Positions 55,629-60,649 of a DNA stretch of 64,000 nt are shown here, in pieces. The position numbers and the translations under genes were made by a program. This stretch comes from an uncultured Desulfobacter sp. GTDB taxonomy: Bacteria; Desulfobacterota; Desulfobacteria; Desulfobacterales; Desulfobacteraceae. The notes under the pieces were generated by a model. The model searched no databases. It was not told the DNA's origin and saw only the letters and a list, made by a program, of their open reading frames with translations. Position 1 is the first letter of the stretch; every line of letters begins with the position of its first letter. The DNA lies in the NCBI GenBank assembly GCA_963665095.1, contig OY762069.1, forward strand, positions 3,168,001-3,232,000, given 5' to 3'.

Positions 55629-55870
55629 TTTTATTTCCTTTTCATCCTGCAAAGCGGCAAAACCCCAAACGCTGCATGCCACCACCTTTACAAATCTTTG
55701 ACCAAAATAACAGCCCGCCCATTTCTTTAACAGATACAGAATCAAAATATTCCAACCATAACAGATTCGCAGGAAAGGGGTCAGGTATTGAATTATCAGT
55801 TTCTGGGAAGTTAGGGCCAAATCTTGATTAGAAGCTATCTCAAAATAAATATTTTAGTTCAACCCGTTGC

Positions 55871-56068
55871 GGGCCATTCGCCTGCCGTTCGCTGAAATCC
55901 GTTTGCACAAGTTCTAAATTTGCTTCGCTAAACTGCAAAAACTGCGGTCCAGTTGGTCCTCAAACAGTTGTAAGCATAGCTTCTCTTCGAGCGCAGTTCT
56001 TCACGCTACGCGGCATTAAGAACTTGTAGCAAACGAATCCCTGACGCTCTCTTGCAGGCGAATGACCC
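55871..56068. repeat. Long imperfect hairpin element (~200 bp)
   Basis: GGGCCATTCGCCTGC / GCAGGCGAATGACCC and CGTTTGCACAAGTTCT / AGAACTTGTAGCAAACG nested arms. Confidence 0.8.
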
Positions 56069-56109
56069 TCCACTAGGCTATGATAATAGACCCGTAACTG
56101 ATAAATCGG

Positions 56110-56287
56110 TCCGGCGGTTGGGCAGGCTATTGTGGAGCATTAAGCTTGATTTTTACAGCCTTTTGTGAAGTGCAGTGGTTAAAAGAAAAAGTTGTCTGAC
56201 CGAAGGGAGTTCTTTTTCTTCAACGGAACGGAACTTAAAGGCTGTTAAAATCTTTGCGTGCGGAACAACAGGCTGACCAACGCCGGA
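56110..56287. repeat. Long imperfect hairpin element (~180 bp)
   Basis: TCCGGCG-GTTGG / CCAA-CGCCGGA, GATTTTTACAGCCTTT / AAAGGCTGTTAAAATC, AGAAAAAG / CTTTTTCT nested arms. Confidence 0.8.
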
Positions 56288-56307
56288 GTTGCGGAGGGGA
56301 ATAATAA

Positions 56308-56355
56308 GGGGGGGGGGGGGGGGGGGCAGGTCTTGAATTACAAGACCTGCCCCCC
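56308..56355. repeat. G19 tract merging into a perfect 15-bp inverted repeat
   Basis: GGGGGGCAGGTCTTG-AATTA-CAAGACCTGCCCCCC. Confidence 0.85.
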
Positions 56356-56374
56356 ATTTTTTATGTCCGAAAGG

Positions 56375-56695
56375 TCATATTTTTATTTTATGTCGGTTTC
56401 GCCATAAAACAACGTCTGAATTAGAATTCCTGACAAACAGCGCAAACTCCTCGGGAGATAAGACCTCTTTGTAATCAACCCTTTTTTTCCCGGCACCAGA
56501 CCTTGCATTGCCGCCGGATTCAGGCTCACCATCAATATATTCCACTGCAATACCCCAGAACGAATTTTCCCCTGCGACCACAAACTCCCGCTGGACATGA
56601 ACGACCCGATGTTGCCGCAAAAACAGGTTCAGGCCTTCCTCTCCGGGCTCCGGGTCCATTGTTCCCACTTTGAAAAATTTGTATTGCACTGTCAT
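56375..56695 (-). pseudogene. Truncated HRDC-domain DGR accessory-like protein
   Basis: QYKFF..LNLFLRQHRVVHVQREF..W...VEY..VDYKEVLSPEEFALF, then abrupt AT-rich sequence where the HRDC helices should be. Confidence 0.7.
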
Positions 56696-56762
56696 ACCGC
56701 GCCACCTTCGCAAACCGAAAAGGAACTGCCTTGCTCCCGCCTTTCTGATAATCCCCACCACC

Positions 56763-56822
56763 GGCCCGTGACGATCATTTCAAGCCTGCTCCGCAACGGC
56801 CGTGAAATGATCGACACGGGCC
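56763..56822. promoter_or_regulatory. 20-bp inverted repeat downstream of the putative DGR variable region
   Basis: GGCCCGTGACGATCATTTCA / TGAAATGATCGACACGGGCC (one mismatch), 18 nt past the stop codon. Confidence 0.7.
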
Positions 56823-56840
56823 TCCCTGCCTTGCCCTGAC

Positions 56841-58922
56841 TCACTTGTGACCTGGGAGGACAAGCCGAAACCCGTAGCCGCAGTACCGCCCAGACGGGTC
56901 GAACCCGCCGCGGTTGCCACAACGCACGCCCCCGGGCCCGTCGTACCAGGAGCCGCCGCGCAACACCCGGCTCGATCCCGAAGTAATAACAGGATTGTTG
57001 CGACTGTGTTTTGAATAGGCGTGTTTATCATATGCATCCCGGCACCACTCCCAAACATTGCCGCTCATGTCATAAAGACCAAGACCGTTGGGTGATTTTG
57101 TCCCTACATGTTGGGTTTTGCCTCCGCTGTTATCTCTATACCAGGCCACACTGCCTGCACTGCTGCCTCCTGAATACTTCTGCCTTTTGCCCCTGCTTCT
57201 GGCTGCATACTCCCACTGGGCTTCCGTGGGCAGGGAAAACCTCTTGCCGGTCTGCTGTGTAAGCTTGTTTATAAACCCCTGGGCATCATGCCAGCTTACT
57301 AGTTCCACCGGCCTGCGGTCCCCATTAAAATACGACGGGCTACTGCCTGTTACCTTGCGGTACTGGGCCTGGGTCACCTCGTATTTACCCATCCAGAAAC
57401 CGCCTACGCACACTTCGTGCACAGGCTTTTCATCATAGTCTCCGTCACCAAAGGTGTCACCCATATCAAAACATCCGCCCGGCACCCACACAAACTCCAT
57501 GCCTGTGACAGGTTCGGTCCAGGTGGCACCGGGTTCAGGATGCCTCGGGGCAGGCGGAGCTACCGAAACAGGAGGTTGCGCGGGTGCTATCACAGCAGTT
57601 TTTTTCAGATGCACGGCAATAGTTTTATCCTCGCCCTGCCCCACCTCCGTCCAGAGGCTTTGGCTGTCATACCCCGAAGCCAGGAGCCGCACATGGTATT
57701 TACCCGGAGCAAGCTCTATTCCCCGGTGATATTTTTCCCGGATGTTCATGATTTTGACGACCGCATCCCCGGGGACGGTATCCACCGTCAGGCTGCCGTT
57801 GACCGGTCTTGCTTCGGCCAGCAGCACATTGACGTCCCTGGACCGGCCGGAACGAAAGGTGTAGGTCCTTTCGTAATTGCCGTAGCCCTGGCTTGTGACG
57901 GTAATCCTGTGATCGCCCGGGGCAATCTCGTAATCCCTTAAGGGTGTCTTTCCCACAAACCGGCCGTCCACCAGGACATCGGCTCCGGCCACGTTGGCCT
58001 CAACCGACAGCCAGGAGCCTTTCTTTGCCGCAGGGGGCGCCGGAATATCCGGTTCCGGACCGGGACCGCCGGCCATGATAAAAACAAATTCACCACCCTG
58101 GTCTCCTGTGCTTTTAATCGGACGACACATGGGGGTCTGGTCTGAATTGTTTGCCACAATACGTGCAAAGCCCGTGTACAGTTCCTGGGTCGAAAGATAG
58201 GGCTTGCTGTTTTTCTTAAGTGCTTTGAGCAGCTGATAGGCAAAGATGCTGTGGCCCCCTGTGCCGCTGTCCGAAACCGGGGTAAAATTGCCCGAGGTCA
58301 TGCCCCACCGGCTCTTTTCATTGAACAGCTCCAGGTAGTATTTATCCGTGATCACCGGAGGTAGCGCCCTTGCCTTGCCGAACAGGGTGCCGGAATAGCA
58401 GGAGTCAGAAATAAGAAGGACATGCCGGGCCTTCATGCCGGCAATCAGCTTTTGGGTCAGTACATTATCCAGATAGGAGAACGAATCCCCCTGCCCGGCA
58501 TCCCACGGGATCCACCACCCACCATCGGTGAGCCGGTCATAATCCCCGTGCCCGGCAAAATAGATCAGCACGGAATCCTCCGGCTTTGCCTTGCTCACAA
58601 GCGTTCGTAAGGCGTCATAGATCCCTTTTTTTGAAGCACTTTGATTGATCAGTATTGTTACCTTGAACCCGTATTTATTCTTCAGCAGAATCTCCATCTC
58701 ATTAACATCGTTCACCGGGGTGTCAAGATCCGGGATACCCGGGTCTTTGTAGTTGTTAATGCCCACAAGCAGGGCGTGGTAAGTCCCGACACGGCCGCCG
58801 CCATGTTTCAGGTCGGAAATTATTTTAACGGCACGGGCATTGTCCTGGGAGGCATATCCGGCCGGAACCGCAACCAGGAGCAATAGACAAATCTGAACAA
58901 GAAGTGTTGCAGTTGTTTTCAT
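56841..58922 (-). CDS. Exported caspase (peptidase C14)-PEGA-FGE/C-type-lectin protein; putative DGR target
   Basis: Signal peptide; YFAGHG and SDSCYSG dyad; VDGRFVGKTP PEGA; LPTEAQWEYAAR, GLYDMSGNVWEWC, RVLRGGSW...GFRL. Confidence 0.92.
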   Translation of the reverse strand: MKTTATLLVQICLLLLVAVPAGYASQDNARAVKIISDLKHGGGRVGTYHALLVGINNYKDPGIPDLDTPVNDVNEMEILLKNKYGFKVTILINQSASKKGIYDALRTLVSKAKPEDSVLIYFAGHGDYDRLTDGGWWIPWDAGQGDSFSYLDNVLTQKLIAGMKARHVLLISDSCYSGTLFGKARALPPVITDKYYLELFNEKSRWGMTSGNFTPVSDSGTGGHSIFAYQLLKALKKNSKPYLSTQELYTGFARIVANNSDQTPMCRPIKSTGDQGGEFVFIMAGGPGPEPDIPAPPAAKKGSWLSVEANVAGADVLVDGRFVGKTPLRDYEIAPGDHRITVTSQGYGNYERTYTFRSGRSRDVNVLLAEARPVNGSLTVDTVPGDAVVKIMNIREKYHRGIELAPGKYHVRLLASGYDSQSLWTEVGQGEDKTIAVHLKKTAVIAPAQPPVSVAPPAPRHPEPGATWTEPVTGMEFVWVPGGCFDMGDTFGDGDYDEKPVHEVCVGGFWMGKYEVTQAQYRKVTGSSPSYFNGDRRPVELVSWHDAQGFINKLTQQTGKRFSLPTEAQWEYAARSRGKRQKYSGGSSAGSVAWYRDNSGGKTQHVGTKSPNGLGLYDMSGNVWEWCRDAYDKHAYSKHSRNNPVITSGSSRVLRGGSWYDGPGGVRCGNRGGFDPSGRYCGYGFRLVLPGHK

Positions 58923-59034
58923 TGCTGACAATCCATATCGAAAATTGAACGGGTTATGGTTAACACACAAGACTCTTCTGAAATATATACAGACATATAG
59001 AAATGATGCTCTCTTTTCAACCCTGTTTCTCGAA

Positions 59035-59145
59035 TTCCGGGGACAGGAGTTCCGGGGACAGTATATCCATTAGAGCGAGTTCCGGAGCGAGTTCCGGGGA
59101 CAGTATATCCATTAGTGATTTAATATGTATGCTGTCCCCCCGAAT
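59035..59145. repeat. Cluster of TTCCGGGGACAG repeats closed by an inverted copy
   Basis: Three direct TTCCGGGGACAG copies, one partial, then CTGTCCCCCGAATT. Confidence 0.85.
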
Positions 59146-59151
59146 TAAAAA

Positions 59152-59388
59152 TTACAACTCATCGCCTTTTACAGGTTCACGGTCGGTGACTTTATTTAAT
59201 ATTGCTTCCATATCATTAATGTCAGCTCTTTCTGTACGACTTTTTAAATAATCTTCTGTCATAATAGCCGAAATTTTTTCAGCTATAGCAGATGAAATAA
59301 GCTGATTAATTGATACACCTTCAATTTTAGCGATTTCACGTATATGGCGGTGAATTGACTCCGGTAGTCTTAGACTTAATGCGCCCAT
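59152..59388 (-). CDS. Ribbon-helix-helix antitoxin (HicB-like)
   Basis: LSLRLPESIH...EGVSINQLI; overlaps the end of the PIN gene. Confidence 0.85.
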   Translation of the reverse strand: MGALSLRLPESIHRHIREIAKIEGVSINQLISSAIAEKISAIMTEDYLKSRTERADINDMEAILNKVTDREPVKGDEL

Positions 59389-59795
59389 TGTATTTCCTCC
59401 AGTAATTGTTTAGGCTCAGTAACTTTGACTCCAAATTGTTCGCTGCCTTTAAAGTCTTTAATATTGAAAGTGGTAATTAGATTAACATTTGAAGCAACAG
59501 CCAATTCAAGCACATGGTCATCTTTGGGGTTTGACAAAAAAGGGCGCCATAGATAGTGGATTTTATGAAATGAAGCCAATTTGCATATATTATCTAAAAA
59601 TGAATCAATTTCACTGTTCGAAAATCCAAGTTTTTTGCTGTTTCTTTTCAGAACATCTTCATATTCAAATAGTAATGCAACCGATAGCACAGGCTCGACT
59701 TTGTGTTGTGTAATAGCACGCAAAACCTGATGCGATGCCCCATTTTTTGAATAAAGCCCTGCAAATAAAATATTTGTATCAAGAACCGCTTGAAT
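59376..59795 (-). CDS. PIN-domain toxin; no canonical start codon ahead of the DTN motif
   Basis: In-frame IQAVLDTNILFAG upstream of the TTG in the ORF track; EY, PKDD, TFNIKDF motifs. Confidence 0.8.
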   Translation of the reverse strand: MQAVLDTNILFAGLYSKNGASHQVLRAITQHKVEPVLSVALLFEYEDVLKRNSKKLGFSNSEIDSFLDNICKLASFHKIHYLWRPFLSNPKDDHVLELAVASNVNLITTFNIKDFKGSEQFGVKVTEPKQLLEEIQWAH

Positions 59796-59830
59796 TTTGA
59801 CACCCCCATTTTATTGGAATCAAATATATA

Positions 59831-59861
59831 ATACCATATACGGTATCGTTTATTGTGTCAA
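59831..59861 (-). promoter_or_regulatory. Promoter and palindromic operator of the PIN-antitoxin operon
   Basis: TTGACA-17 nt-TATGGT overlapped by ATACC-N6-GGTAT. Confidence 0.55.
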
Positions 59862-59928
59862 GCTGTACTTCTTTTTGCGAACGGGTAACTCAGCCGACCG
59901 GGGCATATAGCCGAGCAGGTTGTCGGTC

Positions 59929-59962
59929 GTTCCGGGGACCAGTATACCCATTAGTGATTTAA
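59929..59962 (+). repeat. Direct repeat of 59091-59123
   Basis: GTTCCGGGGACCAGTATACCCATTAGTGATTTAA versus GTTCCGGGGACAGTATATCCATTAGTGATTTAA. Confidence 0.9.
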
Positions 59963-60125
59963 GTTGACCTTACCTTGTCTTGAATGATAGGGACAGTTTT
60001 ATTACTTTTACTTGTGACCTCAAGGCCTTTTTATCCATGCGTCGCGCGAAAATATGTTTAAAATTTTCATATTTTGCCGTATATTATCTGTAGTGCAGAT
60101 GTCAATACAATATTAGGAAGATATC

Positions 60126-60386
60126 ATGGCAAGAACAGCAACCATACAAACCCGTGTTGACCCAACGGTAAAACACAATGCACAGATCATATTAAAAAAA
60201 TTAAATATTTCCATGTCAGAAGCCATTTCGATGTACCTGTCTCAAATCACTTTACATAACGGCATACCATTTGAGATAAAGCTGCCCAATGATGTCACTG
60301 AAACAGTATTACTGAATTCGGAAAAAGGGATTGATCTTCATCAGGTTGAATCTGTTGATGATTTATTTCAGGATCTTGACAGTTGA
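60126..60386 (+). CDS. RelB/DinJ family antitoxin
   Basis: IQTRVD..VK..A..IL..L.ISMSEAI...L.QI....GIPF. Confidence 0.9.
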   Translation: MARTATIQTRVDPTVKHNAQIILKKLNISMSEAISMYLSQITLHNGIPFEIKLPNDVTETVLLNSEKGIDLHQVESVDDLFQDLDS

Positions 60387-60649
60387 ATATCCATTATACA
60401 ACTCAATTTAAAAAAGATTACAAAAGGCTCAAAAGACAGAACAAAGACATTTCAAAACTGAAAACGGTTATCGAGAAACTCTCCTCCGGCAAATTGCTGC
60501 CACCAGTTTACCGTGATCACCCCCTTTCTGGAAATTGGAAAAATCACCGTGATTGTCACATCGAACCTGACTGGCTTTTAATTTACCGAATCACCGCTGG
60601 GAACTTATACCTCGAAAGAACCGGATCGCACTCTGAACTGTTCCAATAA
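60383..60649 (+). CDS. YafQ family mRNA interferase toxin (TTG start)
   Basis: TQFKKDYK, DHPLSGNW, RDCHIEPDWLLIY, RTGSHSELF. Confidence 0.93.
   Translation: MNIHYTTQFKKDYKRLKRQNKDISKLKTVIEKLSSGKLLPPVYRDHPLSGNWKNHRDCHIEPDWLLIYRITAGNLYLERTGSHSELFQ

Follow-up and report, generated by a model that had tools for sequence, protein, structure and literature searches.

An adenine-poor gene end and a truncated HRDC gene as the probable remnant of a diversity-generating retroelement in an uncultured Desulfobacter

The 3' end of a caspase-FGE gene in an uncultured Desulfobacter sp. was in all probability (roughly 0.9) diversified in cis by a diversity-generating retroelement (DGR) of HRDC type, from which a deletion of about 1.5 kb from inside the HRDC gene then took a template-like copy and likely the reverse transcriptase (RT), leaving a tip that is likely frozen. 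The window, by which is meant the whole stretch of 64,000 nucleotides that was analysed, carries the features collected in Table 1. A preliminary description of this DNA had proposed that the gene end was diversified by a DGR, and the adenine-poor variable region (VR), the hairpin, the remnant of an HRDC gene and the differences between alleles in template-adenine columns agree with this. As an RT, a template and an intact HRDC gene were searched for in the genome and not found, the locus is described here as a degenerate DGR and not as a functional one.

Table 1. Coordinates of the features at the locus (positions are those of the window)
Feature	Position	Strand	Remarks
DGR target gene	56841..58922	-	693 aa from ATG; open frame extends to TTG at 58970; from the ORF list
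Peptidase_C14 (caspase-like) domain	58125..58778	-	PF00656, E 3.8e-20, 73 bits against a cut-off of 21.4
PEGA domain	57816..58010	-	PF08308, E 1.1e-17
FGE-type C-type-lectin domain (FGE-sulfatase)	56859..57497	-	PF03781, E 6.6e-45
Variable region (VR)	56856..56969	-	adenine-depleted; template non-A consensus bases kept, template adenines lost
Constant 3' end of VR, likely homing/IMH segment	56844..56877	-	copy also in template-like DNA of long-form contigs
Long inverted repeat (hairpin/cruciform)	56763..56822	.	begins 19 nt past the target stop codon
5' half (89 codons) of HRDC accessory gene	56429..56695	-	HRDC domain missing; frame continues through unrelated sequence, stop at 56375
Deletion junction, about 1,500 nt removed	56423..56428	.	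rest of HRDC gene, template-like VR copy and probably the RT gene gone

The target gene and its variable region

The reading frame of the target gene is intact, and its 693-residue form is present in the protein collection as P0001. The matches to Peptidase_C14, PEGA and FGE-sulfatase each lie above their Pfam cut-offs, the N-terminus resembles a signal peptide when judged by eye, and His125 within an HG motif and Cys175 within a DSC motif are what we take to be a caspase-like His-Cys dyad. The best match in the PDB is TvpA, the DGR variable protein of Treponema denticola (2y3c, E 6.5e-35), and the best true FGE is far weaker (E 2.7e-18). Catalytic FGE (SUMF1/FGE) has a cysteine pair after the RGGS motif; the residues after GGSW in the target are YDGPGGVRC. 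The possibility that the target is itself a catalytic formylglycine-generating enzyme was considered and rejected, as alignments to true FGEs stop at RGGS and their scores are far below that of TvpA. Tentatively, and at a little under even odds, the domain content may be that of a caspase-like protease that is exported and uses its lectin-fold tip to bind a surface ligand, selecting what is cleaved or when. In the protein cluster look-up the target is a singleton, and a homologue search with its FGE domain returned mostly multi-FGE proteins and no close alleles. The region just upstream of the gene (59376-60649) contains a gene with a PIN domain and a RelB/YafQ toxin-antitoxin pair.

The preliminary description had counted 7 adenines on the coding strand of the 114 nt from 56969 to 56856, and both this count and the translation were reproduced; its statement that the codons between GGSW and GFR are mostly NNC also holds, with 14 of the 24 (58%) ending in C. 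Upstream in the same gene, 35 overlapping segments of 114 nt contain 17-42 adenines each, and with the upstream adenine fraction of 0.246 the binomial probability of seven or fewer in the VR is 2e-7. Across 2,495 long ORFs of the genome, seven or fewer adenines occur in 3 of 34,589 in-frame 114-nt segments and in 1 of 2,495 segments at gene 3' ends, presumably that of the target gene itself. The VR peptide could be encoded with a minimum of 7 adenines, which is the number observed, against 14.2 expected from the codon usage of the genome, and the amino-acid composition therefore covers only part of the adenine poverty. Two FGE genes of the same genome that have no DGR context, used as controls, hold 30 and 32 adenines over the equivalent segment.

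A consensus of 24 adenine and 44 non-adenine columns was derived from 16 templates of intact cassettes, and the window VR keeps 41 of the 44 non-A bases and 5 of the 24 adenines. The VRs of cassettes with their own template, which helped to define the consensus, keep 35-44 of the 44 non-A bases, and the non-DGR control, of two genes only, keeps 31 and 32. Compared pairwise, four related VRs differ at 11-17 of the 24 adenine columns and at 5-10 of the 44 non-A columns. In codon 17 of 38, one base of the window VR in a non-A column departs from three related VRs, a sign of drift. The segment 56969-56856 is the VR of a decayed HRDC-type DGR, and its constant 3' end would likely act as the IMH segment.

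Hairpin, HRDC remnant and the two forms of the locus

The hairpin that follows the gene folds as DNA with -28.2 kcal/mol (z -5.57), a value that 0 of 200 shuffles matched, and similar hairpins follow the targets of two same-genus relatives (G020 and G023) and of the paralogue ending at C1:4697712 in the same genome. Downstream of it is a short ORF with no Pfam match, of which 82 of 87 residues (94%) are identical to P0002, a full-length HRDC protein of 161 aa with PF00570. This identity ends at the codon finishing at 56429 and the sequence beyond is unrelated, so the ORF is the 5' half of a DGR accessory HRDC gene; an intact copy of that gene was not found at the locus, only its first 89 codons. 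A search with the ORF led to a complete DGR in a Bacteroidales MAG, with FGE target, HRDC gene, RT and template in this order. Queried with P0002, the viral contigs gave no match and 400 other genomes of the order none above 57% identity.

All or part of the stretch is contained in 16 sequencing runs from five studies, and four of the 16, one from each of four studies, were examined as contigs only. RNA is not listed as containing the stretch, which has no bearing on expression. In run X12, nucleotides 1-446 of contig 9 correspond to window 56874-56429 and nucleotides 1947-2357 to window 56422-56000, with 1,500 nt of extra DNA in between. Since the identity to P0002 stops at 56429, exactly where this contig leaves the window to rejoin it at 56422, about 1.5 kb is read as deleted at the HRDC break. 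Contigs with extra DNA at this place (the long form) were seen in runs X7 and X12, from two studies; contig 9 of X12 spans the break, and contig 23 of X7 has 1,200 nt of the extra DNA. Within the extra DNA of both runs there is a second copy of the two VR ends (56844-56877, and about 33 nt from 56946), with joints from 56422 to 56844 (side of 34 nt) and from 56877 to 56946 at the depths of the long-form contigs (contig 23 in X7, contig 9 in X12). Such a two-ended match would fit the look of a template whose adenine-rich middle does not align.

The long-form contigs are shallow metagenome unitigs of depth 5-8, in which gene body, VR and junction are phased within one contig at most. Downstream of the junction 1 of 411 letters differs from the window, against about 3-5% in the HRDC and hairpin part upstream, an asymmetry that hints at a mosaic history. 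Because of the 3-5% difference these contigs are regarded as relatives of the window's locus and not as its direct ancestor.

The short, deleted form was found in the two other studies. In X4 (depth 126) it is one contig of 866 nt, identical to the window over VR and junction; alternative letters are not listed for its VR, though contigs of this kind drop rare variants. In X10 (depth 392) a contig crosses the same junction without a gap, and this main contig differs from the window at 21 positions in 618 nt. Among the 13 differences listed, 11 are in the VR, and 10 of these 11 fall in the 24 template-adenine columns and affect codon positions 1-2 in every case; for the listed differences the probability of this concentration is 3e-7, or 4e-6 when restricted to variable codons. 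Between the VR and 56361 (480 nt) only two differences are listed, and upstream of 56978 the contig changes over to another FGE body. The simplest account of the X10 allele is that recombination placed a second target, of the same template family, beside the junction. Two 130-nt contigs of depth 3 in X12, both over 56845-56970 with 20 and 18 differences, form a bubble confined to the VR, a pattern suggestive of two tips within one sample, although a pair of strains or of paralogues would give the same picture. The FGE bodies before this VR family also vary over 56978-57700: that of X7 is about 97% like the window's, that of X12 is 42 nt longer in the FGE domain and in this resembles the paralogue at C1:6447823-6449597, and that of X10 diverges at 56978.

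Adenine-specific retrohoming is an established mechanism for the Bordetella element. By analogy with it, the long form would be a working cassette of target, hairpin, HRDC gene, RT and template, whose template RNA would be reverse-transcribed with adenine-specific errors and whose cDNA would take the place of the VR, with the constant 3' end and the hairpin as guides. The RT is placed in the 1.5 kb, which would contain it, on the basis of size and of the order target-hairpin-HRDC-RT-template in relatives; in the intact cassette of the same-genus genome G020, 1,397 nt separate the equivalent HRDC codon from the end of the template. The short form would be the derived state, produced by deletion, with a tip that could no longer be rewritten.

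The surroundings of the junction have some further features. Positions 56424-56429 are the 6-nt palindrome GAATTC, and at 56308-56330 the minus strand has a long C run (G on the plus strand) next to a short inverted repeat; the run is 11 nt shorter in X10. A non-coding repeat at 55861-56298 recurs across the genome in more than 10 partial copies of 76-98% identity. Three copies (C1:6447223-6447692, 5024126-5024344 and 4695152-4695204) lie close upstream of the other remnants of caspase-target genes. The repeat was not seen in the fetched loci of other genomes and has no Rfam match over threshold, and it is possibly a MITE-like element travelling with these genes. The single Rfam match over 55700-59500 was far below its gathering score and was taken as chance.

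Machinery in this genome and cassettes in relatives

The genome is a single contig of 6.9 Mb, 97.4% complete and without N. A DGR-clade RT was not found in it: the 13 RVT_1 matches are read as group II intron type and several are fragments, the best identity to a DGR RT is 30%, and the best score on a profile of 26 DGR RT sequences is 137 bits, against 381-531 for the profile members. No template was detected in this genome by permissive blastn, by an adenine-aware scan of both strands with four queries or by an Asn-rich motif, all of which returned paralogous VRs only. The preliminary description had suggested that template and RT are either lost or act in trans from elsewhere. As neither a DGR RT nor a template exists in this one-contig assembly, loss is supported and action in trans from another place in the genome is not. 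Loss is also favoured by the hairpin, the truncated HRDC gene and the breakpoint at 56429/56422, none of which had been mentioned, in addition to the long-form contigs. The template-like copy that was to be sought by permissive blastn is thus lacking in this genome, and a second VR-like copy is present in the contigs of X7 and X12.

DGR remnants lie at four loci of this genome and belong to two template families. A full-length paralogue of the target (C1:4695280-4697712) has a VR that fits the G020 template family, with 16 of 29 mismatches at template adenines. Compared with the G020 template, its VR (C1:4697551-4697712) contains a tandem duplication of 21 nt, and the copies read LSFMGFR and GSYVGFR; they appear to resemble two differently mutated versions of one template stretch, and the duplication may record a retrohoming slip or unequal recombination between two VR alleles. 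At C1:6447823-6449597 there is a frameshifted caspase-FGE paralogue with a VR of the window's family and no hairpin behind it. At C1:5024580-5025090 roughly the first 200 nt of a caspase-target gene are fused to a truncated G020-type HRDC gene, the second one in this genome, which has 81% nucleotide identity to G020 over 278 nt and is cut nearly where the window's HRDC gene is. By eye, a toxin-antitoxin-like pair is located downstream of this remnant.

A DGR RT query gave matches at E <= 1e-40 in 14 of 160 other genomes of the family and in 3 of 24 in the genus. With the HRDC remnant as the query, 10 of the 160 genomes were matched, yielding 12 HRDC loci. Six of these, in five genomes (G020, G008, G070, G124 and, twice, G088), are intact with full RT and template, and their templates mismatch the VR mostly at adenines. 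Two (G002, G006) have a template together with a broken RT, one has a truncated HRDC gene and no RT (G131), and three are broken or at a contig edge (G133 twice, G069); this mix of states indicates that cassette decay is common in the family. At the level of the order, an RT is beside the HRDC gene in all 14 loci examined and a template in 13 of the 14. Tandem targets, with several per template, occur in G088, G002 and G060.

No cognate template was found among those fetched, the best having 22 and 20 non-A mismatches in 114 nt. At the DNA level, searching 61 relatives and 161 family genomes recovered related VRs with no RT nearby (G023, G006) and no cognate template. A degenerate VR pattern matched twice in 401 genomes of the order, a sample that G023 and G006 lie outside, and both matches are in the window's own genome; it gave none in the viral contigs and one in the metagenome contigs. 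This last match was rejected as the cognate locus, as it is an FGE gene with no HRDC gene, RT or repeat in 7 kb (L056). Both of the related VRs come from the same genus and are of the window's family. In G006 (L011:1600-1780) the gene is a pseudogene with a stop in the GGSW motif and a 1-nt loss, and in G023 (L010:1577-2302) the same hairpin is present and the 5' part of the gene and the HRDC gene are lost; neither has an RT nearby.

Alternative explanations and published systems

An ordinary Gly/Arg-rich FGE-like end with no DGR history would explain some of the adenine poverty, as RGGSW and GFR can be encoded without adenine and the peptide by itself brings the expected number down from about 28 to 14.2. 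It does not explain a count at the minimum possible beside 30 and 32 in the control FGE genes, and composition has no bearing on the HRDC remnant, the hairpin, the template-like copy or the differences in adenine columns; the HRDC and template context refutes this explanation, which is hardly credible. VR and template are repeats able to confuse assemblers, and intact forms are present in related populations, so that the 1.5-kb gap might be a misassembly in an organism with an intact DGR. The junction, however, lies inside the HRDC gene and not between VR and template repeats, and the contigs of X4 and X10, at depths of 126 and 392, cross it without a gap, by which this extremely improbable account is largely refuted. 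It is also highly improbable that diversification of the target continues in trans, with RT and template located elsewhere, such as on a replicon absent from the assembly. The hairpin and reading frame are intact, X10 has the same deletion yet a different VR, and remote targets are known in HRDC-type DGRs according to Wu et al. (PMC5758913). Against this stand the lack of a DGR RT and template in the single contig and the X4 contig with no other VR letters listed, although contigs drop rare variants; the X10 VR may moreover have arrived with its different FGE body upstream of 56978.

That retrohoming has ceased and the tip or gene body is instead swapped by homologous recombination, between paralogous targets of one template family or with intact-cassette cells, is compatible with the loss of template and RT by deletion, and we consider it possible but rather unlikely. 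The same junction is found with two VRs and two FGE bodies (window and X4 as opposed to X10) and only two listed differences in 480 nt, the X12 body is longer in the manner of the C1:6447823-6449597 paralogue while the X7 body is close to the window's, and tandem targets with one common template exist in G088, G002 and G060. On the other hand, the unitigs phase body, VR and junction no further than one contig, and X10 would be accounted for just as well, without any ongoing exchange, if tandem targets had undergone a single old deletion between them. A bolder version, which is improbable, is that short-form lineages renew their tips from intact-cassette cells by recombination via the constant VR end and the hairpin. 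That two gene bodies and two adenine-patterned tips share one junction would then be the trace of tip uptake, and a minority of mutator cells would supply tip diversity to non-mutators.

Under the reading of a cis-acting DGR lost by deletion, the intact and deleted forms of one cassette in public samples provide a base-resolved before and after of a DGR switch-off, and the notion of mutating and then locking the result by deleting the mutator becomes testable on real populations. DGR surveys that require RT and template will undercount diversified genes, since such a rule finds no DGR in this genome, which nonetheless has remnants of two template families at four loci. The type of system, degenerate loci and caspase-CLec targets are already known, and the gain is a clean example with no new mechanism, in which the breakpoint is unusually well defined.

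HRDC-type DGRs are described as 'Architecture C' by Wu et al. (PMC5758913), who count 14 among 372 with the Treponema element as the prototype. The present locus resembles these and TvpA in its FGE-type CLec target with a C-terminal GGSW...GFR VR, its HRDC gene and the same order of parts in relatives. It is unlike Architecture C in that the HRDC gene is halved and RT and template are absent from this genome, making it a remnant and not a working element, and unlike TvpA in that the target has caspase-like and PEGA domains outside the TvpA match. For Thiohalocapsa PB-PSB1, Doré et al. (PMC10907252) report degenerate DGR loci with machinery missing, structural variants of DGR 3 and 7 within that population whose RT and TR are intact, N-terminal domains swapped on a common VR end, and caspase-like effector domains. 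Missing machinery, intact variants in related samples, domain swapping and a caspase-like target are all shared with the locus described here. According to the same source each class in PB-PSB1 still has one complete locus, which makes action in trans possible there; in contrast, this genome is without any DGR RT, and the remnants of both its template families are dead.

Cyanobacterial DGR variable proteins with an N-terminal orthocaspase and a C-terminal CLec have been reported (PMC7517822), and the target is like them in joining a caspase-like peptidase to a hypervariable CLec. It differs in belonging to another lineage and in its signal-peptide-like N-terminus, PEGA domain and HRDC-type cassette. 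Closer to Desulfobacter, DGRs with several VRs have been tabulated for Desulfobacter postgatei and a Desulfobacterium (PMC3521204). In the DGR of the Bordetella phage BPP-1 an inverted repeat is described just downstream of the VR (PMC3240598), and the hairpin here likewise follows the VR; unlike the 24 bp of BPP-1, it spans 60 nt with an interrupted stem of 19 bp, and its role is putative.
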